A stretch of DNA of 63,581 bases, the filler included, from Platydemus manokwari (Eukaryota), in NCBI GenBank assembly GCA_037951405.1. It is 6 parts of 6 records of this genome, joined end to end, with 100 filler letters (N's around TTAATTAATTAA, not from the genome) between each part and the next. Parts side by side here need not be neighbours in the genome. Positions count along the whole stretch, not along the records: positions 1 to 9,908 come from JBBMOY011190322.1; 5 more parts are not named here. One strand, 5' to 3'. Below, one piece after another: positions 1 through 55,844 of this stretch (its first letter is position 1; each line of letters begins with the position of its first letter). The notes under the pieces were generated by a model. The model worked only from the letters and a program-made list of their open reading frames with translations, did not search any database and was not told where the DNA came from. The position numbers and the translations under genes were made by a program.

Positions 1-719
1 CCATTTGGTCTTTCGCATTTCCCGTTAGTTTGCGGGTGGTATGCCGATGTGGTTAGCTTTGTAATTCCGAAAAACTGGTTTACTTGATTTATGATTTGAC
101 TTAGGAATTCGGTACCTCGATCGGTGAGTAACTTTTTTGGTACACCATATCGAAAGATTATTTCTTCGACAAAGATACGAGCTATTGTGTCGGCGGTATG
201 GTTTGAGATTGCGAAAACTTCAACCCATCGAGTAAGATGGTCGCAAAATACTAGAACGAATTTGTTCCCTTGTTTGGTGGTTGGCAGTGGTCCGACGACG
301 TCCATGGCGACAATTTCCATTGGTGCGCCTGGAGTTGGCATTGCCTTCATTGGTACCTTGAATTTCTTTCCTGTGTTCCGTCTGGTTTGGCATACCTTAC
401 ATGTTGTACACCATTCATGTATATCTTTTTTCATATTTAGCCAATAGTATTTTTGTCGGATACGGCTCATGGATTTCCTAGCGGACAGGTGTCCTCCTAA
501 GGTTCCGTCGTGATATTGTAGAAGTACTATGCTCCGTAGGACTTTGGGTAAGACGATGGGATGGTTTGTGTCTGTTTGATACTTTACGATATCGGCTTGG
601 ATAACAAATCTCCCTTGTTCTCCTTTGATTTGTTTGAGCTTTTTGGTTTCTGATGTAAGGTCTACTCGTTTCGTGATTTCTGACCATTGTTTGGTTTTGT
701 CTTCTATTGTTTTCACGAT
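1..719 (-). pseudogene. Integrase (HHCC zinc finger + DDE core), continuing past the window start
   Basis: Reading on in the RT/RH frame past the TAG at 720-722 gives HDGTLGGHL...YYWLNMKKDIHEWCTTCKVC (HHCC), IVAMDVVGPLP (D), LLTDRGTEF (D), TSAYHPQTNGKCER (E). Confidence 0.93.
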
Positions 720-2224
720 CTACATGATGTCATCGTCCTCTTTATGTAATGCTGCTATATCGTATAGGTTACTCAATGTTTGGTTAGCGGTGAGTACAGT
801 TTCTGTGGTGACTTCGTATTCTGTAGGATCGGCTCGGGACAATGCCTCGGCATTCCCGTTGGCTTTACCTTTTCTATAACACAGTTTGATATTGTATTGT
901 TGCAGCTTTAATGTCCATCTGATGAGTCTTGAAGCTGTGTCTCTATGTTGTAAAAACCATTGTAGGGGTTTGTGATCCGTGAGTACGTGTATTTCTTGTC
1001 CATATACGAACGTCCTAAATCTTTCTACAGCGTAGACGATAGCAAGGGCTTCGAGTTCAATTACAGCGTAATTTTTCTCGTGTGTTTTTAGACCTCGGCT
1101 AACGTAGGCTATTGCGTCCTCGTTTCCTTGTTTATCGATCTGTCCTAAGACGGCTCCTATTCCATATCCGCTTGCGTCCGTCATGATTATAAACGGCTTA
1201 CTCATATCCGGATGTCTCAAAATGGGTTCCTTGAGTAGCTGTTCTTTTAATTGGTCGAAGGCTTGCTTCTGCTCCTGTTGCCATTGAAATGGTTTATTCT
1301 TCTGTAACAACGTTGTGAGTGGAAGGGCTATGGCGACGCAGTTCCGTATAAATTTTCGATAGTAGTTGACTAGGCCTAGGAATTCTTGTACCTGTTTCAC
1401 CGTCTTCGGTGGTGGGAATTTGGCTACTTTTTGTGTGTATGCTGGATCAGGTTTTACTCCCTCTCCAGACACTACGTGTCCTAGGTATTTTACTTCTCGT
1501 TTGGCCCATTCACACTTTGTGGGTTTGAGCTTGACCTGCACTTCGATGACCTTTTGTAGTACTCTTTCGATGTCTTGGAGGTGTTCTGTGAGGCCATTAG
1601 AATAAATGATCACATCGTCTATGTAAGTTAGTGCGTGTTGCACGTCCATCAACATGATGTTCATTGCCCTTTGAAACGTGGCAGGAGCTCCAGTGAGTCC
1701 GAATGGCATGACCGTGTACTCGTACAGTCCTTTGCCGTCCGTGAAGGCAGTGATGGGAATTGATTCTTCATCCATCTCGATATTATTGTAACCTGTTTGC
1801 AGATCTAGTGCGGAGAATAGATTTGCTCCTTGTACTCGGTTGACCATATCGTCGATTAACGGCAATGGATAGTTGTCTTTTCTTGTCTGTTTGTTGACCT
1901 TGCGGTAATCGATACACATACGCATGGTGCCTTCTTTTTCTTGACTAAAACGATAGGTGATCGCCAAGGTGAGTTGCTTGGTCTGATTCTCCCTTGATCC
2001 AGCAGTGTTTGAATCTGTGTGGCTATTTCCGTTTCCATGGCTATTGGTGTATGGTAGGCTCGTTGGTCGATAGGGTTTGGGTCCATCAACTCTATCTTGT
2101 GTTTCATAATGTTGCATTTTCCCAGATCGTTTTCATGTCTGGCGAATGCCTCTGGATATCGATTGAGTAATACGGTTAGCTGCTTGCATTGTTCCGGTGT
2201 AATATCCTTGCTTTGGATTCGCAT
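720..2224 (-). pseudogene. Reverse transcriptase + RNase H (frameshifted near 1945)
   Basis: ORF 1856..2224 gives the RT start (GRIRPSNSPWRSPIVLVKKK). ORF 720..2117 continues MRMCIDYRK, LDLQTGY, YIDD (1614-1625), YLGH, then RNase H TDAS, ELEALAIV, TDHKPL, NAEALSR. Confidence 0.96.
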
Positions 2225-2269
2225 AGGCGCGTATAGTTTTCCTGTTCTAAAAGTACTGGTTCGGCTCTA

Positions 2270-2530
2270 AAAGGCTCTACTTTACCAAGTCTGGTGTTGG
2301 CATATAACGTGACAGGACTGTTGTTCACGTTCGCGATTCTGATCGGGATTTTCTCGTCTTGTGCGATGGCGATTCCATTTCCTATGGGTATTCCATATCG
2401 TTGGACAAACTCTTGGCTTGGTTCGAATACCAGTTCGGTTCCATCTGGTTGTGCTGTGTTGGCATAGTATATAGTTTCGATTCTTGGTGGGATTTCTCCA
2501 GTTTCTCCCACATAAATTTCTCTGTCGCCT
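2270..2530 (-). other. Degenerate dUTPase-like beta module between protease and RT
   Basis: IPPRIETIYYA...ELVFEP...GIAIAQDEKIPIRIANVNNSPVTLYANTRLGKVE follows the dUTPase strand pattern (I-x-V-x-x-x-N...I-x-x-G-x-R-I-A-Q-L); no intact catalytic motifs seen. Confidence 0.45.
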
Positions 2531-2589
2531 CGTCTTTTCTGTTTGGCGATGGAAATTAATTTCCCCGTGCTGCAATCGTAAACAATGTC

Positions 2590-2880
2590 TTTCAATTGCT
2601 TTATTGCGTCCTGTCCGACTACACAATGAGTTGGTGCCCACGGTGATACTCGGGCTTCGACGGTTAGCATCTGGTTGCAGATGTGTAGTCTACATGGTAG
2701 TACTCCTAATAGAGGCAGTTTTGTTCCGTTGATTCCTACTATGGGCAGTTGGTTCTCATCTTTAATGAGGTTCTGCATCTCTATGTGGTTTAGTATTTCC
2801 GGTCTGATGATAGTGACATCAGCGCCTGTATCTATTAGTGCCATTACTGAGTGGCGGTTAAGCTTTATCTGCATGAGTCC
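2590..2880 (-). CDS. Retropepsin-like aspartic protease domain inside ORF 2176..3690
   Basis: VMALIDTGADVTII (DTGA at 2821-2832), flap IVGINGTK, and C-terminal CVVGQDAI (ILG-x-D equivalent). Confidence 0.93.
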
Positions 2881-3329
2881 GTTTCGACCTGTACTGGCTA
2901 CGTTGACGTACTCTACCAATCCCCGTTGGTTTTGTCGTTTGATCCTTATGTCATCTTCCTGGTTGTCGATCATTGCCTGTAGCTCCATTGTAGGATAAGT
3001 TTTCCGTTTGTCATTTCCGGATTTCCCTACTGATTCCTTGAATTCCTGATCGTTTGAATCTCCTTGTCTGATTGGTACGTCTGGCTCGACTTGAACTAGG
3101 CGGTAAGGTGGTGCACTGACGGTTGGCTGGTGCCACTGGATGTCTTCCATGGGTATTCGTCTACCTTTTGGTTTAATTCTTTCTGTCCAATTTTTAAAAG
3201 CGTTAGAATATTCTTCATCGCTGTCGTCGTTTGTTGGCCAGGTTGGTTTCCGGATGATGTGTCGCTTTTCCTCCATCCACGTTTTCATTTGTTGTATTTC
3301 CCTTCGGTGTTGTGCATGTATAGAGTGGT

Positions 3330-5150
3330 CGGCGCAAGGTGGACATAGTACCAATAAAATTCTTCTGGTGCATCCGAAGATTCGGTATAATAAAAATGCT
3401 GTCATTGCTCGATGGAACACTACGTATAATAATGTACACGTGACGTAGATGCCCGTGCATCCGGCAAAGAATGTTCCAAACGTCATGAAGCTACCCCAGA
3501 TTTGGTACATGACATTAACGGCGGCTTTCTTGTAATGTTCGGAGGTAAACAGGTTTTCATAGTCTGGCGCACTCCTTGATCTATCATGATAAATTCGTCT
3601 GATTATCTCGGTAATGCCTAGATCCCTTAGTTGCGAAAACATTAACGCTCGTCGTGCATCTTCGATATCTTTAGGATTGTATAGTCGCATGTGAGTTTAT
3701 CAGTTCTAAACTGACACATCCCTCTATTACACTGAGATTTAGTGTCTGCACTGGTAGGTGTGGTAATCCTCTTGATGGTAGTGTCATCCATGAGTTCTTA
3801 ATTTTGTATAGTGGCGCGAAAAATGGGGTGCACGTTCCCTTTGTAGGCTTGGCGTTTGGCTCCAATAATATCCTGGTGATTGGAACCATGTATCTGGTTT
3901 TCCCTTGATACGTGACTTTTAATTCGTTTGTGCATTCGTGCCCGTGTGCCATCATGACTTCTACCTCTGTATAGCGAAACTCGTACCAGACTTCTCCATT
4001 TACCTTGCCATATTGTCCTTTTTCCATGATGATGGGTGTGATTAAGTCTGGGTTGGCTCTGGCAAATAACTAATCGGTTCCGTAGGATTTCTTTATCTCT
4101 TTGGCAAATGGCAATTAGTGTTTCCTGGTAGATCTCGAGTAGCTGTGACTGTAAGTCATGGTAGAGGAAGTCAAATTTATTGTAGCTAGCTAGTTTAATG
4201 TCATTCTTGTGGAGGGTTTGCGCATTTTCCAGCTTTTCCTTGCTGTAATGGACACCTTCGTAAATAGTACTGTATAGTATCGTAGCACACTTCGTGATTG
4301 GTGCTTTGGTTACAAGCCGGATTGCGTCGGAAGACTTGTTTGACATCAGTATTGTAGGTACTGCTCGTTCTTTCACGTTTGAGTGCTCCTTGGCTCCTCC
4401 TAATTGTTTGTTAGTTACTTGGGTGCCTGTTCGTTTCTCATAAACTAGCTTGGTACTAGTTATGGCAATGAATGGTCCGCTCTTCAGTAGCGTTAGTCCA
4501 CAGTGGTCTGCTTCAGGTGGGCGGTAGCTGAGTACTCCCCCATTGACTCTACAATTTCCGTGTCGTAAGTGACACTTTGGGTATTGTGTCATTAATCCGG
4601 TTTTGGCATCAAATGTCGCCTCGAAAAAGTGTAGCTCCACTCGGTAATCTTCATTGGTTATTACCCAGGAGGTAGAGACTCCGTCCCGGAACTTGGTTCG
4701 TCCGTTACATTCTCCATTATGAGCTATTTTTCCACCTCAGGTTACTGTCTCTTGCGTGATCATATTTGGTTCAACTTTTAGGCTTAATTCAGTGTCAATT
4801 CGCAGTTTCTTGGTTACGAATGCACCTTGGCAGTCGGTTGGTGCTATGTTCAGCATTCGTGGGATTAGTTTAGCGTCTAGTATCGCTATTCTACTATGAT
4901 ATCCGCAGAGGTACTCGAAAGTTGCTACCTCAACTCGGCATTCTTGTACCATGGCTCGTATGAAGTCATTTTCTTGGTAGGTGTAATAAGTGTCCGGTTC
5001 ACTTTTCTGTAGCTGGTACGGTTGCACAGATGGGCAATTTATAAAGTCCACTAGAGAGTAGATATTGGATATCTCTGCTTTTCCGTAGTCATAGGCTTGA
5101 AGTAGAGTGGTTTTCCCTATTAGACTCATGATTAGTTGGATTTTGAGTTG
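3330..5150 (-). pseudogene. Chuvirus/Jingchuvirales-like envelope glycoprotein, split by one stop (4737-4739) and two frameshifts (~4045, ~3690)
   Basis: Colinear blocks match the chuviral G pattern as I recall it: AYD(Y) for GYDC; YSLVDFINC; ECRVEVATFEYLCGYHS; GKIAHNGECNG; ASYNKFDFLYHDLQSQLLEIYQETLIAIC; GQYGKVNGEVWY; ECTNELKVTYQGKTRYMVPITRIL; LYNPKDIEDARRALMF; IWGSFMTFGTFFAGCTGIY, followed by a hydrophobic TM segment (3415-3501). Confidence 0.85.
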
Positions 5151-6390
5151 TCCTACTAAATCGTATCCTTGGTTGCTTGGGTCAGCTTTGTCGGTTGCTT
5201 TATGATTTAGGTTTAAGGCGGTCCATCAACCTTTGCCTTCTAATCATTGGATTAGGTATCTTTGGCATGTCTGTGTTGCTTGCATGACGACATCTTTAAA
5301 ATGACTCGGTTCCTGATATGATGAGGTGACGACCTGTTGTATCAGGCATGTGAGGGCTACTTTTACGCGTACCAGTGTCAGCCGTCCTGAGTTAGTTCAG
5401 CTATAATGGTACGTGGGTTGGCATCTCCCTGGTTTAGTATCTGTTTCATCTTTGGCAGGTATCTTTGGATTGCGCGTATAACTCCTTCGTACCCTTCGGT
5501 TTCTCGGTTTGGGATCCGTAAATTATGCGGTTCTAACCCATGTGCTAATGTTAAAAAGATTGTTTTGATATCCGTGTCTCGGGTATCGGGGTTAGCGTCT
5601 GCGATTTTTTTCAGGATTTTCGCCTGGCTTCTGGCGCAAGTTTCCTCTTTTCGTTCCTCCATGAGGGGTGGTACCCTCTCTGAGTTAGGTGGTCTACCTC
5701 TTTTCCGTTTGTTGAACGCTTGTGGTTCGGTTTCTGGTTCGTGCGTGATTTCCATGGTGGGCTCTATCTCGTTTTGTGTTTGGCCTTCTACGGGGATATT
5801 CCTTTCGAATTCGGTGAGGTACTCGACGATTGGTGTGTTTAAAAATGCATCCAAATCGACCTCGTAGTTTGGCTGGATCTCGTTTGGTGGATCCACATTG
5901 ATTGGCTCCATTCCGGGTTCTTCTGGTTCGGGCGGTTTCAGAAGTGTGATAGTGGCTCATTTCCACTGGTCTACCATAGGTACTGGTATTACTTTAGCTG
6001 TGGTGATGTGCCCAGGCAGGCATCCTACATCGACCAAGTATTCATCGTCGTCTACAGGATGTTCCCATATTGCTATGATGAATGGTTCCCGTACGGGTTG
6101 TGCTTTCTTGATGGCGATTCTCAGCCGTTTTACTTTGCAATAAATAGATTGCTGTGTTTCCCATGCTCCGAATTCTGGAGTGTGAGTCTGTATTGTGACG
6201 GAAAGCCGCGACAGTGGGCTGCGCCTCATCAGATGTCCGTTTCTCTGTAGAAGTAGTTAAATTTCTACTTGGTACTCAGAAGGCTTTCTAAGTTGCGTTA
6301 CTAGCATTAGTGTTACTTTTTCTATGACATCGGTTGGCACGGTGACTTGGATTATGTCTCCTAGCATTTTCTTGATCCATGGGGCATCAC
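5150..6390 (-). pseudogene. Uncharacterised coding region X between nucleocapsid and glycoprotein
   Basis: One frame from ~6390 to 5378 with internal stops at 6257-6259 and 5957-5959 joins ORFs 5957..6229 and 5378..5911. A shift near 5390 enters the glycoprotein frame (stops at 5244-5246 and 5226-5228). Contains an acidic Pro/Glu tract and KRKRGRPP. Confidence 0.65.
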
Positions 6391-7520
6391 CCTTTCAAGT
6401 TCCGGTGGTAGACGTTCTGCCTTTTTCTTTTCTTCCTTAGTCCTCTGGATTGTGACAAGGACGTTTTCAGTTGTGATAGCTGTGGTTGGCTCTGAGTCAC
6501 CGGCAAGGTGCTTTTCCTCTGCGGTCATTACTCGGTCAGCTCCTGTGTTGGCTGGTGAAGAGTGACTTCGTTCAGCACCTGTATTGGCTGGTAACGAGTG
6601 GTTTCGTTCAGTGTACTCCGTGACAGGAGTAGTGTTGCTGGGGAATGTTCGGGTTCCATCCCCTTCCTCTTGGTAATAGAACATTAGTGTGACAGCCCTT
6701 GATTTCTCTGGTATGGCGTGTGCCATGAAACATTGTTCCTGTTGGTTGACCCGTTCAATCCTGTGCTTCTCAGCTAGGTATTCCTGTTCTAGCTGCTGTA
6801 GGAGGGTCCTTTGTCCACCAGATGTGAGTTTCTCGGCGGCGATGAACGCGTTTTGCGGTCTGTTTTCAGGTTCCTGGGTCCTCGGGTTGACCCGTTTTAT
6901 GTTACATGTTTTGGCTAGATGTCCATAGCGCTGGCAGTTGTAACACTGTATTTTTCCGACTGTATTGACTTTTTTCTTTTGAAGTTGTGCCTGTTGTCGG
7001 CAAACTTTTCCTATATGTCCTTTTCTGTTCCAAAGCTCACACTGTAGGCTAGTGATTTTGAATGCGCTCGTGATGTGGTTGTTGCGCCCACATCGTTGGC
7101 ATTGTACGTCTTGAATGGACGGTTTTTTAGTCCATGTCCATGCTGTCCGCATTGGAAGCAATTCAGGGTTGGTTTGACTGGATTGTTCCTCTGGTAGTGC
7201 TGTCCCTGTGATTCGGGGATCTGTATGGCTCCTTTTGCTCTGGTAAGACATATACTTATTCTTGATTGACCTTTCCTATTTCGATGAGTCTGGCTTTGCG
7301 TAACAGTTCGTCAAAATCATCTCCCACGTGCAGGCTGAGTGCTGCTCGGATTGGTGGGAGGAACCCTTCCCAGAGTGTGTCTTTTAGGTCATATTCTGTG
7401 TTTGGCGGCCACTCTTCTCTGGGTCCATATGCTCGCTCGGCCAAAATAGCTAACTGGTGTGCAATTCACCGGCATGTTCTTCTGGTAACTGTTTCCTTTC
7501 CATATATTTCGATAGTAGAA
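6361..7520 (-). pseudogene. Gag (capsid C-terminal part + three zinc knuckles), 5'-truncated and frameshifted
   Basis: MHR-like RKQLPEEHAGE/AHQLAILAERAYG and capsid-like LWEGFLPPIRAAL...LLRKARLIE. Knuckles: CQRCGRNNHITSAF (last C lost), CELWNRKGHIGKVC (second C lost), CYNCQRYGHLAKTC (intact). Confidence 0.88.
6536..6607 (-). repeat. 36-bp in-frame tandem duplication in Gag
   Basis: Encodes ERNHSLPANTGA / ERSHSSPANTGA. Confidence 0.85.
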
Positions 7521-9908
7521 GATTATCACGGATCAAGAATCAGTAAATGACCAGTATGATTTTTAAAAGACCCGACAATAAGATAAAATTTTGTAAAATA
7601 CTGATTCATATCATTCACCGTTGTATCTATAACTGCAGAGGTTTGACCACAAAACCTTGAAGGTAATTAGTTTTTCTCCTATAAGTGACGTCTATTTAGC
7701 GTGAGCTTCATCCAGAAATTGTAAGTCTCAGCATAAAGTTCAGTTTATAGTGCAGTGCTGCAATAACTTAATTTTTATCCTTTAATTTATCTTTAAATTG
7801 CATTTGTGTCATTTAGCAATAAAATTTTAAATAAATAACCTTAGTTATTGATTGGTTGGTGATTTTCGATCTTAAATTGTCACTAATCACAACATCAACA
7901 ATCTTGTGGTTGGGACAAAGTCGGATATCATATGAATCGAATTCGATTGAAAATTAAATCAATTCAATAACTAATGCTTCGTAATCAATAAACAAAATTG
8001 TCAGGGAAGTGATAATATTTATCCATTTTCGTCAGATTGAGAGACAAATATAAATGAAATAATGGTAAATCACATTATATCTGGAATAAAATGAATACTT
8101 ATTAAATTATCTACGTCATATTTCGATTCTAATGAAAGTTAATTATATCAAAGAAAGTTAAAGTGCTTCATTAATCCTTCATTAACTATCATAATATGCA
8201 AAATGCTGTCACATTTATTAAAGTACAGTTATAATTTCAAATCTTTTATAAACTGAGATAGTATCATTCAAACAATTAATATATCCACGTGAAACATAAA
8301 GTACACAGTAACACCCTAAATCATACTCAATGTTATTAAAAGCGTTGTTTAGAAATGAACCAATTAATATTTAGGCTATTCATCGAGACTGGGTATATGT
8401 CCCCCCTAATATATGCAAGAATTAATTAGAAATTATTGTAAAAAATTGCCCGAATGATAATCATACGTTGGACAGACTACTTCTGTAAATAGTTTCATCA
8501 CATCAAGGCACTGAATGTCAGACAGATCATTATTTATTAATTAATTACCGTCAGAGAATATAAACAAAATAAATAAATGCTCGCCATGCTGAGATGTGCA
8601 CTTAATATTCACTAAAGTTACAATATAATAAAGTTTTATCTGAAAATTTAACAAAAATATTTACGAAATAAACGATATACATGTGCAGTACTACCAATCA
8701 TTTACTAGATAAAAGCACAAAAATATTTATTTATGAATATATAATATTTCATTTATCCCATGAAATCTGATGTCATTCGTTTTCAAAATTGCACTTTATT
8801 AAACAATCAAATTTTAAACGGTTTCGATATCTGTTGTTCATTGAAGAAATTTATATTTGTAAATAAACGAAGCAGTGATGAACTTAGTTGATGAAAAATG
8901 TTCCCATATTGGAATACAATATGTTACTTTATCAGTCATTAAAATGTGGAACATGAATTGAAGTGATTGAAAGAATATTATCTTTATCCCAAAATACACA
9001 AATAATTATTCACGGAACAAAGTAAAATCAACATTTGATGTGAAAGCGATATTTATTAAAGAAGATCTGGTAATATTGGCTGGATAAAAGAGTCGCTGTT
9101 GAATAAATTGGAATTGATAACTTCAAATGTCCAGACGTTAAATATAATTTTTATGTCCGTGAGGAAGAATCGTTGAACATATAACTGCTGTAATATATTA
9201 TTTCCTATTATATCAGCATTATTGACTTCAGGATAAATCTCTCTGGAGTATGAAATCTGAGAGAAATTCCATTTGTAATGGATTTCAAATTGAGCTACGA
9301 CTATGATAGATGAAAGTGGCTAAATAAGATAATTAATTAAAAATAATAATTATATTATAATTAACTATAATTCGTATATAAAGTACATATTATCAACTTG
9401 TTTGAATAAATGAAAAATATTAAATAAAATTGTCCAAATTTTTTGTTGAAATTCATTAGATGGTGACTTTGTTGGAAATATTTAATTTTAAATTATATTT
9501 TCATGTTTTAGAATCTCAAAGTACATACACACTAGGCTACGCCTTTTAAATAGATTCCGCGCGTTTTATTGTTTTATTCAAATAAACTTTATTATTTCAT
9601 TTTGTTTAAATTCAGTACAGCATATATAGCATAAGTTATACAAATTATTCATATTTGTACTTATATATTTGTAAATAGTATAACGCATTGTTATGCCTTT
9701 CTTTATACATCGTTTCATAAGACTTCACCTTTTGAGTTAGGTTACTAATAATTTTTGGATTAATCATTATGGATTAATGAATTACCATTAGATAATATAA
9801 ACAAAATAATTAAATGCTTGTAGCACTGAGGGTTAAACTCGATATTTATTGGAGTTACAATAAAATAAAGTTTGGTGAGAAAATTTAACAAAATGTTGAT
9901 GATGATGG

Positions 9909-10008
9909 NNNNNNNNNNNNNNNNNNNNNNNNNNNNNNNNNNNNNNNNNNNNTTAATTAATTAANNNNNNNNNNNNNNNNNNNNNNNNNNNNNNNNNNNN
10001 NNNNNNNN
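9909..10008. other. Artificial contig linker N44-TTAATTAATTAA-N44
   Basis: Identical 100-bp structure recurs five times; the 12-mer has stops in all six frames. Confidence 0.95.
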
Positions 10009-19534: not shown

Positions 19535-22150
19535 CTATTCTGCACATTTGCCATAACTTTCAGGATAGAGTAAAGTGGGGCCTTTCGATTGTGATTTTTC
19601 GGGTTCACCTTCAATCAATAATCTCAGCTTGTTGTCGGGTGGAGTCAACACGAACAGTCGATTGAAGCGAAGGATATTGTATACCTGAAACAACGGTCGG
19701 CACAGTTATTACAAACGATAAATTAAGATATAATTAACAACACAGATATGCAGTGTAGTGGAAAAGTGTTTCATGGAAAATGATAGGATTAATCTTCTCA
19801 TGGCACCTCAGAATTAATATTGCAATCAATTAAAGTCACTATTTTGCTAGACAAAATATGAACACTTGGTTTATTAAATCACAGTAATACCCCCCCCCCT
19901 ACCAAAACATTGCAATAATAAACCATTTTAAATCGGATTAGTATAGAAAATGCCTATATGACAAACCATTACATGATAATATTATAAAATATAATTAATA
20001 ATTTATCAACAAAAATATAATAATAATTATTAGTACAGATGACAAATAAATATTTAATAATAATATATTAATAAAATAATATATTAATAATATTTATATT
20101 AATAACAATAATAATATAAATAAAAATATAATATAAAATTTGGAGTAAATATACTTTTGCAGCTTGAAGTTCTTAAATACGTTTTCATTTCGTGCTTTAT
20201 TAACTAGTAGCACCTAACAGTGAGGCAAAAATAGAACAAATAATTTTAATTAATCCCACTTTGGTCGGATTGGAATATCTCGGATTTAGACTCTGGTCGG
20301 AGTGCTTTCAAAATTTCAGGTTTTTACTTTTATAATTCATATAAATTTCACAACTTGTCTCGTAGCTATAGTTACTGATGTGTGCATGATCAACATATTG
20401 ATTCTTTTCTGCACATTACACACATACACTCACTGTCGACACGTAGTTTTAATAGAGATTTAATAATAAATGTTATTCAATTATAATTATCAATTTAATA
20501 ATTAGTTTGTTTTAATAAATACATTTTTGAAAAAATGGTCTAATTCGAGTTTTTCCTTCATTTTTCTAAATTTGCGATTGCTTTAGAAGTCTTACGAGGG
20601 TACAGTTTTCCAAAGGTTTATTTCGTCCATTCATTATGGCTGAAAAAGACAGAGATAACGATGGAAATGAATCGGAAGACAAAATTGATGAATTGACAAG
20701 ACCTACGATATTGGAAGTCACGTAAAACAATGTCTTAGGCACTCGCATAAGCCAGAAACGATTGTACATGAAGATGTCAGGAAATTGATATTTATCCAGC
20801 CATACAGAACTGATTAAGTGCCATATTTATCAAATCTGACTCAAGGGGACAGGGCTGTAGTTAATAATAAAATAGAGTCCAGATATATCGAGATTCATAT
20901 TCAGTGTTTAATGAGAACTGAATAAATCAAGAGAGATATCAGATCTAGCCAATCAACATGTAGATATGACGGAATAATTGCTGATAATCAATAATTTTCA
21001 AACATATAATCTGATATTCAGAGATTAAATAAAGCACCGTTTTGTAATCTGGGACATTTTATAGCCCTGACCAATGGCTGTAGTCATAATAGGGCATCGA
21101 TTTCCTTTAAAAAGTAAGAATCACAGATAATTATTAATCATTATCAAAGTAAATGGAGTGAGATTGCGTAAAACGTAAAGCTCAGCTATTCAATTTGCAA
21201 TTGGATAATCTCTTCCATAAAAATGATCGATATTTGATTGATTCCACATCTCATAAAAATGACCAATAAAAATCCTCCATGAATCACCATAGAAACAGTA
21301 ATCAATTATATCAGACTATTGCGATTGAAATCGATATAATATTTTAACAGCTTACAAATTATCCATATCAAAATTTCCTGTCATGGTGCAACAGAAAATA
21401 AAACAAAATTTAATTATATATTTATAAAATATTAATAAATGTGCCAATCTAAATTGATAATAGAATAAAATGTGATAATTTAATAATATATTATGAACAT
21501 TATGCATAAAAATTATCAATCATAATATATCTGATCACAATAAACGGTTACTGCAAAAGCGATTTAAGAAATAGATTTATTTATTTAAACATTTATGAAA
21601 TTAATTAGTCGAATAAATAAGCATTTTAATACAGCAATTAAAATAAATAATTAAAAAATATAAAATAACCTTTTCTGGAGGTAATTTATACAAATCTGCC
21701 AACTCTTCTATGGTTATATCATCTCTATATTTTTCCATCATTTCAATCAAAAGAGAAATCGTAATCTTTCCTTCAGGAATAATAACTGGTTCTACTGCTT
21801 TTTCATTGCTGTTATCATCAAGATCATATGGTAGCACTTTCTAAATTTTCGAAATTAAGACCTTCTAATTGGTTGTACACGCAACAAACTTTTGGTAATG
21901 GACGATTCGATTTAGTTGGCACTCGCTTGCCCTCAATTACTTCTGTGCTACTTATTTCAAATTTATTAATTTCTTCTACTAACTTAACATTTTTATTATT
22001 TTCAATAGATTCAGAAATAAATTCCATTTGTTGAGGAATTTTACTAGCTGAACGAGGTTTTAATTTGTCTTTTTCTATTTGCTTTATTGCTCGATTAAGA
22101 ATATTCCAATTTTTAAAGGGCTTGATAGCCCTACTAGCTACAGCACCCAT
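19535..22150 (-). CDS. NDUFAF4: NADH dehydrogenase complex I assembly factor 4 homolog, 193 aa; exons 22150-21890, 21840-21670, 19684-19535
   Basis: MGAVASRAIKPFKNWNILNRAIKQI (family MGA...N.N+.NRA.+.I), RPLPK, IPEGKITI, ELADLYKLPPEK | VYNILRF. Two phase-0 GT-AG introns (49 and 1985 bp); TAG at 19535-19537. Confidence 0.88.
20600..21350 (+). mobile_element. Possible 3' end of an LTR element (polypurine tract + LTR start) inside NDUFAF4 intron 2, antisense to the gene
   Basis: Purine-rich AAGGGGACAGGG (20843-20854), then one C, then TGTAGT at 20856; locally raised GC. LTR end and TSD not found, so boundaries are approximate. Confidence 0.35.
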
Positions 22151-23304
22151 AAGTGAAAATTAAGTTATTCACAATTTTGAATAATGTTGTAATGTTGTTG
22201 TCAAAAAATATAAAAAAACAAATTGAATCTAAAGCTTTGATATTTGAAATGCTATAAAGAAATTATTATTTAAACAAACTCAATTACATAATATATAAAG
22301 TTATCAAACAAAAGTTGAATTGAAAATTTGTGTATATTAAGCTTCTTCACATATAAAATTAAGTAATATCTATTATGTAAATGTAAAATTAAATAATCAC
22401 ATAAAAATTATGTCGTAAACTCGAAAGTTGTCAAATACTTTTAGTCATATTGTTCACTGGAAAATTCGAATAGTTGTTAACTGAACAGAACATTTTAGTC
22501 TGGTTTTCCTTTAAATGTTGATAATTCTTATTTAACTATTTCGAAATTTTTATTTGCTTTCCACTGGATCTGTGTATTGTTAAACTCAACATTTCGAGCT
22601 CTTCACTTCTTTGTCTAACTTAGCATTAATATTTATCATGTGTGAAGACCTGCATTTTGGTCAACTAGTACATAACGATTATTTATTCGTTTGTAATTAC
22701 CCCATATAGGTTTACCAAAACATTAAAATTTAATTCAAATAACGTATTATTCAATGAATGTTCCAAAAATATACAAGTCGTCAAATAAATTTAGTTCAAA
22801 CTTAAAATCCAAAGATTTTTCAATAAAGAAGAATGAATGAACTTGCATAGAACGCAAGTGTTTTAAAGTTTCTCACTAAGATTTTATGAATATATGTTTA
22901 AACACCGACATTGGGCTTCTAAACTAACAACAATTTTGGCGCAGTTGAAGACAAACTATTTTGGACTCAGTGCTTGAAAGACTTTGTAATATTTTGGCTA
23001 TTATTTTGAAATATGGGATTAAAATAAAAACGACGGTTATCTGCAATCAAATGAAATTTGAAAAACACCTCTCAAGATACAGAATAATATTAAGAATCAT
23101 TAGGTTTTTATTGATGAAGTTCATGGAATTTATATAGCCCGTTATTCACTAGTGATAAAATCAAACTGTTTTCGGGGACGCGCGGACGATTCTTTCCAAA
23201 ACAGGGTATTAAGGGCGATTATCTGACTATTATTGTACTTGAAAGTATTATGTATTGATATAAAGTCATCAGATAAATTTCTGTAACAATTTTTGTTTAA
23301 ATTA

Positions 23305-24617: not shown

Positions 24618-24691
24618 TATTAGGTTGTCCCATATGAAATGTCCGATTTTTATATATTGAACTTTAAATCAAAATTTTTTAAAAACTACTT
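24618..24691 (+). mobile_element. Mariner-like terminal fragment at a contig end
   Basis: TA followed by TTAGGTTGTCCCATATGAAATG, resembling TTAGGTTG-type mariner TIR starts; cut off by the linker. Confidence 0.5.
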
Positions 24692-24791
24692 NNNNNNNNN
24701 NNNNNNNNNNNNNNNNNNNNNNNNNNNNNNNNNNNTTAATTAATTAANNNNNNNNNNNNNNNNNNNNNNNNNNNNNNNNNNNNNNNNNNNN
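24692..24791. other. Artificial contig linker N44-TTAATTAATTAA-N44
   Basis: Same 100-bp spacer. Confidence 0.95.
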
Positions 24792-28074: not shown

Positions 28075-31000
28075 TTAATTGTTGATATTTCCACCTCCGC
28101 CTCGAATTCCTTGGCTGGCTTGTTGTGGTACGGAACCAGCACCTGGAGCATGACCTGCTCGGATTGGTTTGACAATTTGTGGGGCCGGCCCTCTTCGAGC
28201 AAGGTTTCGTTGTCTCACAGCCTCTTTAATTCTATCAACTTCGTGTTGATATCGTCTTCTGTCTCGCATAGCTCCTTCCTTGGCATCTTTCAATGCTGAT
28301 TCAAGGGCCTTGACTCTTTCCGTTGTGCTCTGTAGATTAAAAAAAAGAATTTCAGTATAAAATATTATATTATGATATAAAACTTCAATGATATTCCAAT
28401 GTGTATATATAGTGAGATATTATACAAACTAGATCAATTCTGTGGTATTTATGAATTAAGATTGCGTCAAAAAAGCCATTACAATATTGTCTTAATGATA
28501 AGAATAAGATAAAATTATTATTAAAAATACACAGATGACCAAATGTACAAAATAGGGAAAATTTTTAGTAATTAAGAATGTAATAAAAAATACAAATATT
28601 TCCCGTGTATTTGATAGATAAGAAATAACAATTTATAAATACGTATGTAATCAAATATGAGAAAATGTTTTATTGGACAAATAGAGAATAAAAAGTTGTT
28701 ATAGTTAGGCATCAGATTCAATTCAATGAACTAGATACGTATAATCAATAATAATGCACAAATTGAAGATTCCAAATCCAAAAAAGCTAAAAATCTATAT
28801 ATATGCATGAATCTCATATCAATATAAAATAATATTTCACAGCATGTCATAGAAAATTATAATGGCCAATTGATCAATTCAGATATTATGAACAAATAAT
28901 AAAACAAACTTTTAGTCTCTTTTCCAGTTTTGGTAACTCCAATCTCAGATCGGAATTATCCCTAACTAATTGTTTGTGAACTTTAGTGAGTTGTTCCAAA
29001 TTCATTTCTAGGAATTGAATTTTTTGTTTCTGTACTAGATTTCCAGAACGACTATCATCATCGTCGTCATCCTCTCCAATAATACCAGAATCCCTATTGA
29101 CACCACGTGTCGACTAAAATGATGAACATTTTTAAATGAATTATAAATATAGAAATAATTTTCTTCCAAAAATACCTTTTTCACCCTGTTGCTGAGATCT
29201 TGGACAAATAATTTACGTAAATTATGCAAAGTCTGTAATTCCTTCATCACGGTATCTTCAAGGCCTTTGAGATCTTGTCGAGCTTGTTCTCGCTTTTCAG
29301 CAGCTTTCTCCAGGCCTTCCAATTTTGCTGCTTTTACTTCTCCTTCTGCTACTACCTTTTCATATTCTTCCTTCAATTTCTCGTTTTGAAAGGTCAAATG
29401 ATGAATTTTGCTAAAAACATTAAGGAAAATAAAAATCTGGTGAAACATTTCATTTGAGGATTACTCTTTCATTTCTTCACTCATGCGTTGTTTCTCGTCC
29501 AATTTATCTCTCAGCTCTTTGATCTGCTGAGAATATTGTTCACTTTGGCGTTTGAATTCTTCATCTAGTTTTGACTTGATATCCAATTGTCCAGCGAGTA
29601 TTTCAGCTCGATTTTGAGCATTTGCATTGACGATGAGTTGCTCATTAGCTTTAAATTTGGAAACTTCGGCATTTAATTGATCGACTTGTTCTTCCAGTTT
29701 CCGTTTCTGTGCCTCAGTGTCATCGACTTTGTTGTTAAGTGTGTTCATTCGCACTTCAAACTGATTATCAAAGCATGAGATTCAGATTTATTCGATATAT
29801 ATAATGAATGTAAGTACTTCTTGGACTCGCAATCTCATGTCTCGCAATTCCTCATCGTTCTTTTTCAGGCTTTGGTGTTGTACTGTTCTTTCTTCTTCCA
29901 ACTGTTTAACGCGAGATTGTGTTGTCTTAGCCTCGGTCTTCATTTTGCTGATGTACAATCGGATAACTGTGAATTCCTCATCAATCTTTTCGATTCCAGC
30001 AAAAGATGGTTTCTATAAATCCAAAATTAATTACAATTTAGTTAATTGGAATACGGTTAATATATTTAATTTATCATATTTCTCTTACGCTTAATTGGTC
30101 ACTCATACACTCTCCTACGTCTCCGAGGTCTTTGATCAAGCTATTGAACATTTCTGCATATTTCTTTTTCTGAGTAACATAATTTTCTTTCAATTGTTGC
30201 AATTCATTTTCTTTGCAATTGATGCTCTGTGTTTGCTGATTGAATTGTTCCTGCATGTCTTCTAGTTCGTGGGTTCGATTTTGGATTTCTTGAATCTTTT
30301 GATCATAATTCATTGCTAATTCTTCAAGAGCCTGGAGAACTTCCTTTACTTCTTCTTTACTTGATTCATTTTCACTCTAAAATTTAGATGGTATAAAATG
30401 TGATTAATTTAGTAAATAGTGGGTGAAACTTGTAATCTGTTGAATTCTGCTTGAGTTCTTTCTTGATCTTGTCTGAGACTCTTAATTAATTCATCTTGTT
30501 CTTCAATTTGTTGCTTAAGTCGTTCAACAAGTTGAGCTTGTTTATTAATTTCGTCATCTTTGTCGTCCAATAACCGATATAACTCATTAACCGATGCACT
30601 ATCACCGACTTGAGCTGTAATTTTCACAAACTTTAACAACAGATTTCATCAAAACTATTTTTAAAATATTTAATTTTCAATAGATTTTTCCATGAGAAAG
30701 AAAATTTTCAATGATTAAATCAACACGTAACCCCTCCTCCAGGATCATTTATAATGAATAAATAATAAAACTCGATCTTATAATATTGATATGGTGTATA
30801 ATTCAAGAGTTATTTGATAGAAATATTTCATTACAAAATCAAACCTATGAATCCAATAAAAGATTACCAAATGTTTTAACTGCGATAATGAAATTATTTA
30901 TATTTCAAACAAATATGCAAAACAAATTGTTGATGCCTAGATTATTTATATATTTCAAGCTCAGCTTCGTAATTGCAGCATATTGTGATTAAAATTTGAT

Positions 31001-31734: not shown

Positions 31735-34072
31735 CTAATTAATATAGAAATTAATTTAAAAGGTTTTATCATTTTTGTCAATTAATGTTAAAACATTCCT
31801 GTTGTTGTAATAATCAATAAGTTCAAATTAAGATAATATTTGATTTCCTTCAAATCAAATAAATCAGTAATCAATTAACATCACAACATTTCAAGACTTG
31901 ATAATGCCACAATTATAATAATTCTATTTTAAAACTACTATTTAGCAAGAATAAAATATAAAAGCATAACGATAAGACTTCTTTATCAATTGTTCGACAA
32001 CATTAAATTATTAAATTCATTAGATTAAATTACAGAGTTGAATGAATTAAACATTTTAAATTTGTAAAAATAACCAAACAGTACAATAACAGAAAATAAA
32101 AAAATTTATAAATTATAATCATTGAAAATATTTACCAACGACAAAAAATATATCTCATCAATATTTAACTGTTAAAATAATTATTTTTCAAGACATGTGT
32201 TTAATTTTCTGATTTTATGGAAAGGAATTATTTCAAGAAAATCAATATTATTATTTCTTAGATATGCACAAAGACATTTGAATCGATAATAAACTAAGAA
32301 ATGGGTAAAATGTAAAAGAACTGTTGTCTAATCAAATAATAGTCATATTAACACATCCTACAAGTATGTTTATTTGTGGACACACATAGATATGAGTCAC
32401 GACAGCAAGAACAGAAATGAAATATGCCCACTCGAATACTATTACAAAACAAGCAAAAATTTCAGAAATAATTATTTTGCATGCAAAATTTTGAAATTTT
32501 ATATCTATTGAGATTCAAACAAATTATAAATAGATTAGACAATCATGTATAACATTTTTCATTTATGAATTATTATTGGAAAATTCATGAATTATTGACC
32601 ATTAAAAATTACATATTGAACAATTTACTGTTAATTATTTTCGCCATTTATCATTTTAGATTTATTTCCTTTTTAAACTCAAATATGCAATCAAATGCAT
32701 ATCTTGAATAATTTCTTTTTGGTTATTAATGATTTTATGTAAACTATAATTTTCAAAAGAATTCTTCATATCGGCGACATTTATCAGTTGTATCCAAGTT
32801 GCAAGTTACAAATAATTTCAAATTTATCACTAAAATTAATTTAAATTTATTTTATGCTGTATCCAAAATGTATTTATCAAAATTAATAGGAAATTAATTT
32901 AACATATTCTACTCCATTAGGATTGCTGTAGACTATGAAATATAGACTAATATAAATTTTAATTTTGCTTTACAATTTCAATTTTTCAGATAATATTATT
33001 GTCTAAAATAGGCTTGCTTTCAGCATATAAACACGCCTATCACATTTTTACAAATTCCCTATACCACATTCTATTTCCAATATCTATTAGCGTTGTTAAT
33101 TTAATTGATAAATTATTTAGTCTTCAATCTAATCGACTAATCTGATATAAAAATTATTCAGTATTGGATCAACTTTATTATGAATATAATTATCTCATAG
33201 ATCGATAGATAGATTTAAGTGAACAAATCGTAATTTCAATANNNNNNNNNNATACATAATATTATTTTTTACAAAATTATAAATAATAAGTTGAAACTGA
33301 AATTTTATTCATTTCAGATAAAACTAAAAATCGATCATTTATAAACACATAATATATTCTTGTAAAATCATTTAAAGATAAATATAGCCATCGGTTTCAT
33401 ATTAGAACACTTGTCACAATTTTATTTACACATAAGTTGTTTAATAATAATTTATGACTTAATTAATAAATTGAATATTGAAATGGTACTAGGATATTAA
33501 AATTCAAAATACAAATTAAAGTTCAACATAATCATGACACAGATTAAAAAAATAAATTAACCGATTTGCTGTGATAATAAATTATTTGGATTAATTTGTA
33601 TAGTAAATACTTATTTCATTGTTATTAACACTATTTGTGAGAATATGATTCTAACAAATGATTTAGGTATAAAAATATGATATAGAACTACTTTTGAAAG
33701 CCACGTTACAATCAAAAAATAATAATTGAAGACAATTAGTTGGATTTATCATAGATAATACCGGATGTCAAATAAGACAACCGTTGATAGTAATTTCCTT
33801 TATCCATTTTTATTACAAATATCTGAATTCAATTGTAAACATTTTTATAAAATCAAATAAATATTTTTTTAAACAAATTGTTCAGATCTGATATATATAA
33901 AATGTGCTTATTTTTTTTATCAATACAATCCTATATGATATTACTTTCAAAAATAAAATATACTCAATCATTTAAGTGAATTAATAAAAAAATATTATTA
34001 TTGCTATAATTAATATCCCTAGAATAAATAGAACTAGCATTATGATTAAAAATAATATTACAACTAATATTT

Positions 34073-34172
34073 NNNNNNNNNNNNNNNNNNNNNNNNNNNN
34101 NNNNNNNNNNNNNNNNTTAATTAATTAANNNNNNNNNNNNNNNNNNNNNNNNNNNNNNNNNNNNNNNNNNNN
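34073..34172. other. Artificial contig linker N44-TTAATTAATTAA-N44
   Basis: Same 100-bp spacer. Confidence 0.95.
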
Positions 34173-34559
34173 AAATTACTGTCGGTGGTAACGAGGTGTT
34201 ACCAAAAATAGTAAGCGGAGGCTGGCTCAGTAAAATATAAATACTGAGTACAGGATAGACACAACACAATCACATTTACCCAAGGAACAGAATATCTTCA
34301 ACGGAGATAAACAGAATTTCATATCGAAACGGAATTGCAATTTCAGAAGGGAACGTAACGAAAACAATAGTCAATTCGCGAGGAATTATTTATATAATAT
34401 ATTTGTTCAAGGATCTATATTATCAGAGTGAAGATTTTTCCTGTTTTGTCAACATCGATAGTAAGTATTTAGTTTTTGTAATTATCATTTTTCACTTAAA
34501 TAAGCTAACATTTGGTAAAGATATTTTCATAATTAAATAATTCGATAACATACAACATT

Positions 34560-43484: not shown

Positions 43485-43584
43485 NNNNNNNNNNNNNNNN
43501 NNNNNNNNNNNNNNNNNNNNNNNNNNNNTTAATTAATTAANNNNNNNNNNNNNNNNNNNNNNNNNNNNNNNNNNNNNNNNNNNN
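43485..43584. other. Artificial contig linker N44-TTAATTAATTAA-N44
   Basis: Same 100-bp spacer. Confidence 0.95.
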
Positions 43585-52530: not shown

Positions 52531-54242
52531 GGATAAATAAGCTTTAGGCAAGACAATGATATTCCAGTAATTAATTATATAATAGGCATTAATTAATGAA
52601 AAAACAGTTAAAATTTATTACATACTAATTAAAAATACTAATATATGTTGATATTTCAAAAACAATAAAAGTAAGACAGATAGATATAATTTAAAAAGTT
52701 TCTTACGGTTTTAGTAGTGATTTTAAAATTTTCTTTGTGTTTATTTCCATTTATAATAAATAAAACTCATAATTAAAAAATAAATATTTTAAAAACGCAA
52801 TTTAAAATTTGATATTGCACTACTTTTATGCACATTTCAGAAACCAATAAATCTCAAAATCCAAGTACACCCACAATGGATTTTAGAAAGGGATTTTCTC
52901 AAATTACACTTAACCATTATCATCATTGGTTATAACTTTAAAAATTTATGATCATATTTGATTTGCTCTTAAAAAACTAAATAACATTTAATAACTGTTC
53001 TTTGGGTTTAATGATTGTCATAAAAATATGACCGACAAATTTAGCGAACCAAATTTACCCATACATTCACACGAAAACACCAAATATTATTAATAATCCC
53101 AGGAATTGTAATATTTATGAAAATTAGACTGTTATAATTTGTGAGTCAACAAAAAATTGAACAGATATGAAGGCTAGTTGAGTGGTTGAAAAAAAAACTT
53201 GAAAACTTCATTGAAAAATAGTTATGTGCTTCATGAAATAATAAAGTAGAAATACAGATTTATCCATACCAGTCATTGCATTCTTCTCAATTCCTAAGGA
53301 AAGGAAAAACCCATCTATATTGGATCACATTTATTATCTACATCTCTAACATTTGCACGAAAAGAATACAGTAATGAAAATCGGCATATAAATAATTCAG
53401 TTAAAAATTTTTTTTTCACGGTGAATACCAATTTCCTCTTCAGTGAATCGGTTTGGTTAAGAAACCGGGGGTGAGTAGCCTTAAATAAGGAACACATTAT
53501 TCTGTGATATAAATTTCGTAAATTTGAATTTATACTTTATGCATCAGAATATTGAATTGGATATAAGTTTGACACTTGTATTATTTAGCAATGAAATCTG
53601 AGTATATCCAATCATAATATTTGACATAATATTGTCATTGTAATAGGATGGAAATGTCAAGCGTTGTGATAATAGAAAAATTATAACACGTCTACCATGA
53701 TATTTTGCTGGCATAGTTAGAACGGGTTTTGAGGATTCAAATCCCCCATCGGGATTAGAAAAAAAATACTTTATCATCAGACAAGTATTAAATTTTGGAT
53801 GATATGCACTGGAAAAAATTTCAAAACAAATAACCCCATAAATTAACAAGAATAATTAATTATAAATTCATAAAGCATTTTTTTGCTGATGTGGAACAAA
53901 AATGTCTTGTTTCGAAAATTTGTTTCGTGTTGGTGTTCTATTGGATTGATAGGAACACTTAATTGCTTTATGCTACTATAAGCAGAAATGAATTTTATTT
54001 CAGATAAATCATCAACTAAGCTATACTTGAAAATTAACAAGCTTTCCATAATCATGGTAGATAATTTATTTTGTCGATATGTTTATTAGTAAATTAGTGG
54101 AAAATCTTTAGATGAGAGGTATGGAAAAGACACAAACAAAGAATCAAATAAATGATTTCATATTTTTATTAGAATGATTTTGTTTTATTTATCAATTATC
54201 AATTATTTGTCTAATTTTTTTTATAATCGTCTAAAAATAATT

Positions 54243-54342
54243 NNNNNNNNNNNNNNNNNNNNNNNNNNNNNNNNNNNNNNNNNNNNTTAATTAATTAANN
54301 NNNNNNNNNNNNNNNNNNNNNNNNNNNNNNNNNNNNNNNNNN
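54243..54342. other. Artificial contig linker N44-TTAATTAATTAA-N44
   Basis: Same 100-bp spacer. Confidence 0.95.
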
Positions 54343-55844
54343 ATCAATTTTAGTATTACACCACCTATCTGGAAGAAGTTATTATTTTAAGAAGTATGAC
54401 TCATCTTATATTTTAATACTATATTTAGATTTATAATGAAATTGTTATTAACATTATTCCTGACAAATGATTTAATTCACTTCTCTATGTTCGAGCGATA
54501 ATTATTGCGAAGTTATTTTCTATTGCTCTTGGATTTGTTATTTATGTTTATCATTGGCTTTTGGTAGTCTTACTTATTGAAATAATGAAGTACTAGTAAT
54601 GTTGTTATTTGAAAAAATCTAATTTTATTCAGAAAGCATTGAAAGTAAGTGCATATATAAGAATTATTTTATTTTAATTAATAATATCTTAAGAAAATTT
54701 TCTTATGATTTAAAAATTTACCACATTAAGTCAGATAATTTGTTCGAAAAATATTTATTCAAATTAAAATTTGTAATGATTGGAATACGATGTAAAAGAT
54801 AGTTTGATTATAAATGTCAGAAATAAAATCTGCTGAGTTTGAAAACAATTAACTACCTTTCATGTTATATTTTCTATAGCTATGTTGCTTGAAAACATTG
54901 ACAGCAACGTTGAACTCCAAAGTGAGTTAGAGAGAATATTTCAGTTAGTGCTCAATTAACTGTCGATTGAATTGTTTATATTCAAATAAAATGTGTAAAA
55001 TTAATAATTCCAATAAATGATTTGTATATATTTTATGATTGATTAATTTTTTTATTGTAATCCGACATAGATTCGATTCTTAAATTGGTTTAATTCAACA
55101 ATTAATTTGTGACTTTCATTCTTGTAACTCTTCTTGGGATTGGTCTATGTTACTGTGTGACCATGTCCAATTTTCGAATTAGAATTTCACATTTAAGTCA
55201 GCTGTGATTGGCTGGTTGATAAACCTGTGAGGTTGTGAGAGCAAGATAATGTTTAAAGTGCTACAATAAGGTTTCCAAAGTACAAAATTGTTTTTTGCAA
55301 GATTTCGTATCTACTCAACACTAGCAATGAATGATATGTCTAAAAAATGATCCCTTGACAACATATTGAATATTTATGCCTCAACGGATATTGAGTCTTT
55401 TAAGGTGCCCAGTCTACACAATAAAATCTATTACTGGTAGTCTTTCATTCATCATTTAGTTTCTGAGAATCATGTCATCTATAATAAAAACTTAAAGCTA
55501 CGTGCTTATCAAACGCACTGGTTTGTTCTTTTTTGGATTAAATTCTGCTCCAACACTATTAGCTCTGGATGCAAAAAGTGCAGCCTTAAAGAGTTGTTTG
55601 CTTATAATTATTCTTCATCATATTTGTGACTTTCATTCTTGTAATTCTTCATGTCTTTTGGAATCAGTTGTGAATCTTTCCATATGAATTTTACTGGTTG
55701 TCATTCATCCAATAATTTGTTGGTGTTGTTGATTATTAGAATGTGTGTAATACTTTTATTAAATGATTTTTGGGGTGTTGGTGGCTTTATTATTAAATGA
55801 TATTCTTGCTTTCGTTTAGTTATTTGGCGCGATTTAATCTAAAT

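Follow-up and report, generated by a model that had tools for sequence, protein, structure and literature searches.

Among described retrotransposons, the closest counterparts of the element reported here are Burro / GYPSM1, the giant gypsy elements of planarians. According to the part of PMC6431247 that deals with Burro (where Grohme 2018 and Jurka 2007 are cited for Burro / GYPSM1), these elements encode a polyprotein with Gag, CCHC knuckles, and Ubi2/SUMO-like and BCL2-like motifs, in which an env related to mononegavirus fusion proteins lies in frame between BCL2 and the protease (PR). The same part of the paper presents this as the first case of an env lying in frame between gag and pol, mentions decaying Burro copies with stops and frameshifts, and lists a dUTPase-like motif between PR and the reverse transcriptase (RT) as well as an ORF1 of ~4,900-5,100 aa that includes MATH, BIR, ankyrin, Smc and AIR1 motifs. 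Here we describe an element at the start of a 63,581-nucleotide stretch of Platydemus manokwari DNA (assembly GCA_037951405.1, filler included; hereafter the window), and we consider it highly probable that this is a decayed, 5′-truncated, compact Burro-like Ty3/gypsy copy, the active form of which likely encoded one polyprotein. The initial annotation of the window had proposed a single Gag-X-G-PR-RT-RH-IN open reading frame (ORF; X, the region between Gag and the glycoprotein G; RH, RNase H; IN, integrase), with G entering the endoplasmic reticulum (ER) through an internal signal. This proposal is very likely right, supported as it is by uninterrupted relatives, by a hydrophobic stretch ahead of G and by the Burro layout; the layout itself has already been published and is not new.

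GAG-ENV-POL elements with gB-type envelopes are also reported from nematodes, bryozoans and flatworms in the sections of PMC13524379 used here, with an ectodomain flanked either by a signal peptide and a transmembrane (TM) domain or by two TM domains. Smed_errantivirus_1-6 of Schmidtea mediterranea, in the same sections, have the gene order, Ty3/gypsy pol and gB-type envelope of the window element, and the envelope of Smed_errantivirus_4, which looks the closest, shares 26 of 41 residues with G over the best ungapped stretch of domain I, compared by eye; unlike the broken, truncated window copy, these elements are intact and often multicopy (PMC13524379). The 18 rows of Nematoda_C1 envelopes given there looked unlike the window's G by eye, and a nematode endogenous retrovirus (ERV), which had been our first guess, was rejected, planarian envelopes being closer by eye. 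Neither "Bcl" nor "ubiquitin" occurs in the main text of PMC13524379. The nematode ERVs of Sacco et al. 2022 are reportedly, like the window element, metaviruses with env ahead of pol.

The element occupies the minus strand between ~7560 and the first position of the window, as a GC-richer island (0.38-0.48) within animal DNA of 0.25 GC. Pfam matches on this strand followed the order zf-CCHC, PF24664 (in four successive pieces), PR, RT, RNase H and integrase, and because of this domain order we assign the locus to a Ty3/gypsy (Metaviridae) element with the PR-RT-RH-IN order of that group and with env between gag and pol, that is, in GAG-ENV-POL order (Table 1). G is interrupted by a stop at 4739 and by frame switches at ~4066 and ~3690. 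PF24664, the signal match and a predicted membrane anchor at ~3471-3415 together point to an ectodomain of the gB type (class III), flanked on one side by a signal or TM segment and on the other by a TM anchor, a class assignment that draws on Pfam, the signal profile, the predicted anchor and by-eye likeness, and so on sequence rather than fold. A single 506-aa frame (2176-3696) carries both PF24664 and PF13975/PF00077, the RT/RNase H region has frame switches at ~2242 and ~1920, and a stop lies at 722, upstream of the integrase. No Pfam match was found between PR and RT (2560-2240, minus strand). The element leaves the window inside the integrase, with its 3′ end beyond; on the other side, it lacks gag's 5′ part along with a 5′ long terminal repeat (LTR), and the element edge, where GC also steps, falls at ~7560-7600. 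A capsid profile built from relatives matched 7462-7277 only, which is the last third of its length (independent E-value, iE, 0.0047), and read depth in run X1 fell from ~680 to ~20 near 7590; for these two reasons we regard the copy as 5′-truncated. No LTR pair was found in the window, the element's 3′ end lying outside it and its 5′ end being truncated. Some 7.5 kb of the element are in the window, with ~2 kb between the knuckles and G.

What the window shares with Burro, as described in the cited part of PMC6431247, is Gag, knuckles, a ubiquitin-like (Ubl) domain, a Bcl-2-like domain, env and the order PR-RT-RH-IN. The Ubl domain lies upstream of the Bcl-2-like domain in the window (6373-6011, then 5369-5220). 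MATH, BIR, ankyrin, Smc and AIR1 gave no Pfam match in the window pieces at E up to 1-5. Burro is a giant element that carries MATH, BIR and ankyrin cargo, and because the compact element of the window shows neither trait, we refer to it as Burro-like and not as Burro. A planarian host would fit this likeness. The idea that Ubl and Bcl-2-like cargo had not been described before was rejected, since that part of PMC6431247 describes both in Burro.

The initial annotation had stated that the interval from Gag to G reads as protein throughout, with no AT-rich spacer, and this was borne out. The G and pol frames of the element itself, which lie outside the tested interval, served to train a codon model, and this model chose a coding frame in every 120-nt scanning window from ~7480 to 5020 (minus strand), and GC stayed at 0.38-0.53 over this interval compared with 0.23-0.37 upstream of 7600; because the coding signal is continuous and GC stays high, an AT-rich spacer is excluded. 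Applied to its own training side, the model recovered the breaks there. At the middle penalty (the number of switches called depends on this setting), frame switches were placed at ~7462, ~7240, ~7080-7125, ~6391 and ~5385, and in-frame stops lie at 7258, 6259, 5959, 5246 and 5228. With about five switches and five in-frame stops, the breaks exceed the four listed originally (~7465, ~7255, ~6390 and ~5390). Three of those four, at ~7462, ~6391 and ~5385, are indeed frame switches, whereas the one near 7255 is a stop in frame (7258), after which come two switches (ranges ~7240-7200 and ~7125-7080) that we count separately because the first zinc knuckle (7160) sits in a third frame.

The simplest reading of these stops and frame switches is decay, that is, damage to this copy and not recoding signals. 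Contigs of related copies from run X1, which is possibly non-independent of the window, have frame-changing length differences at ~7462 and ~6389, and so at no fewer than these two switches; among the differences listed, they also differ at the 5959 stop. The ~7462 switch lies in the C-terminal region of the capsid. Relatives use a single frame for the domain that here contains the ~5385 switch and two of the stops (5246 and 5228).

Relatives of the element comprised 95 matches to the N-terminal part of G among 1.84 billion representatives, together with three metagenome loci (98 in all), and in 17 of the 98 the frame of G continues for 100 residues or more ahead of its start motif. Capsid or knuckle signatures lie upstream in G's frame in eight of these 17, seven of them without a stop, and P0127, P0143 and L003 extend also to RT. 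At the DNA level, L003 holds one 2,693-aa ORF from gag to integrase, and L001 holds one 5′-open ORF of 3,426 aa from the Ubl domain to beyond the integrase. Env stands in frame between the BCL2-like domain and PR in L001 and P0124, and probably did so in the window copy before it was broken. The nematode ERVs of Sacco et al. 2022 reportedly have a continuous gag-env-pro-pol ORF. A conserved stop followed by a separate ATG and signal peptide for G was not found: in the window, the last stop is followed by a single in-frame ATG, at 5129, which is within the hydrophobic stretch itself, and L002, the one relative that does have a stop there, lacks an ATG before its signal. Profile scores are circular for the sequences used to build a profile, the independent results being the misses and those of L001 and L002 against the Ubl and capsid profiles. 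Further word-index searches yielded no relative among 236 candidates for the C-terminal part of G (among longer proteins) or among 7,712 candidates for the region-X alignment, the search with RT returned mostly generic Ty3/gypsy pol, and a scan of viral contigs gave no relative.

Some of the relatives have features of their own. In L001 (4900-5400 and 9100-10282) and L003 (7700-8521), and likewise in P0009, P0012, P0013 and P0014, the frame also encodes one or two additional predicted membrane proteins, made up of a hydrophobic stretch, an ectodomain and an anchor; they stand before PR and/or after the integrase, with no Pfam family above the cut-off. Two or more aspartic-protease-like domains follow G in the L001 ORF, P0123, P0124, P0126, P0132 and P0159, against one in the window. 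P0127 and P0017 are labelled as proteins of bacterial metagenome-assembled genomes (Flavobacteriaceae, Turicibacter) and probably come from mis-binned eukaryotic contigs.

Several observations weigh against a single ancestral ORF with an internal signal. The library proteins are stop-free by construction and their counts favour continuity, so that the DNA loci weigh more, and one of the three, L002, has a single in-frame TGA (L002:3058-3060) between the Bcl-2-like domain and the signal. Copy-to-copy differences cover two of the five switches among those listed, and a canonical slippery heptamer in the correct phase is present at 7128. The window's signal is weaker than that of all 22 relatives scored, and the Bcl-2 fold scores reported below are in a range common for helical bundles (Z <8; Foldseek E >0.1).

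The TGA in L002 could be either a lesion or a readthrough stop. In the latter case, an in-frame stop downstream of the Bcl-2-like domain would be leaky in some lineages, giving mostly Gag-X and, by readthrough, Gag-X-G-Pol. L002 is arranged accordingly, with a 999-aa ORF from gag to the Bcl-2-like domain, one TGA, and then signal and G in the same, otherwise open frame of 1,400 codons, with no ATG between the TGA and the signal; a lower output of Env and Pol would also be sensible for particle assembly. Yet P0124, the nearest relative of L002 (100/99 support), passes the same place without a stop, no stop is found there in 16 of the 17 relatives (a biased set), the sequence 3′ of the L002 stop has no stable fold (-10.9 vs -11.4 +/- 2.7 kcal/mol), and the two stops of the window lie inside the BH2-like motif, not after it. 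We regard this alternative as improbable, while a leaky stop at the X/G junction may tune output in some lineages, such as that of L002.

The heptamer at 7128, which lies among the knuckles, would be the best candidate if one of the switches were a programmed -1 frameshift, as the initial annotation had also suggested, and all five switches do run in the -1 direction. Slippery heptamers are common in the element, however, with 20 in 7.7 kb, and one of the five switches has one; a slip at 7128 would shift translation out of frame ahead of knuckle 1's last ligand position, three knuckles are in one frame in P0123, and a short Gag ending at 7128 is not seen in the one-frame relatives. Since no slippery site accompanies four of the five switches, and since two of these vary between copies, we consider a programmed frameshift very unlikely.

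Alternatively, as in Drosophila errantiviruses, G might also or mainly come from an env mRNA that is spliced or internally initiated and has a start of its own; several short library proteins (e.g. P0125, P0135), possibly gene-caller fragments, start with Met just before the signal. Set against this, no ATG lies between the window's last stop and the hydrophobic stretch, and L002 likewise has none before the signal. Because the frame of G continues into PR, Pol would be produced from any such mRNA as well, and we give this explanation little credence.

In the single polyprotein that we favour, an internal signal stands directly before G. A profile that was built from 12 relatives and covers the signal and the start of G matched window positions 5171-5019 (iE 5.4e-9). 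Hydropathy, taken as the best 11-residue Kyte-Doolittle (KD) mean, was obtained for the 22 of 98 relatives with a scorable start motif and enough upstream sequence; it ranged from 2.0 to 3.7 (median 2.75), against 1.65 in the window, a value attained by two of 56 background windows. Among the relatives scored, 15 have G in an internal position, and in every one of them a hydrophobic stretch (KD >=2.0) directly precedes it; the closest-looking relatives, P0124, L002 and L001, are also at the low end of hydropathy. The peptide before G is in G's frame, as originally described, and its modest hydrophobicity and the weakness of the internal signal hold for this copy (1.65) but not for the family (2.0-3.7). 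The family thus appears to have an ordinary signal-like stretch before G that is degenerate here, likely through decay. The ER entry, cleavage and topology that we propose for G are predictions that draw on hydropathy and on what is generally known of signal sequences.

Upstream of this stretch, knuckle patterns were located at 7160, 7101 and 6945, and a fourth, degenerate one (~7041) was read from the translation; the stop at 7258 and two frame switches lie near this cluster. For X part 1, Pfam ubiquitin matches in relatives were below the cut-off (L002, E 0.0047; P0129, E 0.031) and a PDB search gave weak Ubl matches. A 430-aa structure model of region X was poor (predicted local distance difference test, pLDDT, 49) and did not recover the Ubl domain by fold, so the Ubl assignment rests on sequence profiles. 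A loose AT-hook pattern is present in four of the 17 relatives.

X part 2 is likely a Bcl-2-like domain, a call with moderate support from profiles and a structure model. Weak Pfam Bcl-2 matches in relatives (n = 3; E 0.001, 0.055 and 0.2) fall at the same place, just before the signal, and a profile from six relatives matched the window at 5369-5088 (iE 0.003), superseding a first profile from four relatives that had reached iE 0.17 only. Against the PDB, the six-relative profile had Bcl-xL as its top match (E 6e-4), with the Bcl-2 family making up 60 of the 60 rows listed. The model of P0124 (pLDDT 58 overall, 70-80 in the core) had KsBcl-2 as its best fold match (Z 7.0, root-mean-square deviation 3.2 over 106 residues), and nine of its top 10 fold matches were to the Bcl-2 family. 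GGW in BH2 is invariant in all six aligned relatives; the position of BH1 aligns in the profile, and its NWGR motif is not kept. In the window, the BH1-like stretch contains the ~5385 switch, and the BH2-like stretch contains two stops, 5246 and 5228. The cargo of region X varies, with a Bcl-2-like domain in six and a Ubl domain in seven of the 17 relatives, and on the G tree Bcl-2-like carriage takes four changes, a single origin remaining compatible. In P0142, region X (residues ~115-260 of the protein) resembles by eye a DEDD-type exonuclease, in place of Ubl/Bcl-2, as judged from the DEDD-type motif.

The proposed polyprotein would run in the order capsid, knuckles, Ubl, AT-hook, Bcl-2-like domain, signal, G, anchor and PR-RT-RH-IN. 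Gag and X would be translated in the cytosol, the hydrophobic stretch (5171-5097) would open ER translocation and be cut by signal peptidase, the G ectodomain would pass into the lumen until the G anchor halted transfer, and PR-RT-RH-IN would emerge in the cytosol, to be freed by the element's own protease. In flaviviruses, hepaciviruses and alphaviruses, the glycoprotein is brought to the ER by an internal signal that stays behind on the upstream protein; these polyproteins may serve as an analogy only, coming from unrelated viruses with fusion proteins of other classes. A more tentative idea is that the internal signal could double as a tail anchor of the Bcl-2-like domain, staying on the upstream product after cleavage. 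The BH2-like motif is 43-78 residues from the G start in all seven relatives measured and ~42 in the window, and Bcl-2 proteins carry their anchor close to such a distance from BH2. If this were true, a membrane-anchored Bcl-2 mimic might both restrain host cell death and tether Gag to the membrane carrying G. We found no discussion of an internal signal of Burro-like elements in those sections of the literature that the search covered, a set outside which Grohme 2018 and Sacco 2022 fall. The analysis adds a family-wide view, in which a conserved internal signal directly after optional cargo is the likely ER route of G. Its value is modest, the layout being published and the copy dead and truncated; the family-wide signal and the anchor idea are possibly new.

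Table 1. Features of the Burro-like element in the window, in order along the minus strand.
Feature	Position	Strand	Basis and remarks
Capsid, C-terminal third of Gag	7277..7520	-	frame switch ~7462
CCHC zinc knuckle cluster (nucleocapsid), up to four, some degenerate	6904..7160	-	Pfam zf-CCHC E 7e-5
Low-complexity linker	6391..6900	-	codon model; ends at ~6391 switch; X1 copies vary in length
Small helical + ubiquitin-like domain (X part 1)	6011..6373	-	relatives-only profile iE 3.5e-14; stop 6259
AT-hook-like motif	5681..5710	-	Pfam AT_hook E 0.28, below cut-off
Bcl-2-like helical domain, likely (X part 2)	5220..5620	-	half 5620-5390 placed by position only
Predicted internal signal of G, degenerate in this copy	5097..5171	-	profile + hydrophobicity ranking
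gB-type / Monjiviricetes-like fusion glycoprotein G	3262..5096	-	PF24664, four pieces, profile 11-614, E 4e-9 to 2e-15
Aspartic protease	2590..2883	-	PF13975/PF00077; same open frame as G C-terminal part
RT + RNase H, Ty3/gypsy type	894..2240	-	RVT_1 E 4e-35; RT_RNaseH E 2e-38
Integrase (zinc finger + core), runs off window start	1..548	-	Integrase_H2C2 E 3e-20, rve E 2e-13

Elsewhere in the window, N gaps with a central TTAATTAATTAA marker lie at 9909-10008, ~24690-24791, ~34070-34174, ~43485-43584 and ~54240-54343, and these create the apparent long repeats. Exons of a host kinesin-1 heavy chain gene, which point to an AT-rich animal as the likely host, were found at 28075-29460 on the minus strand, where the piece at 28078-28419 matched kinesin-1 in the PDB (E 3e-24), and a UPF0240 exon was found at 21824-22159.

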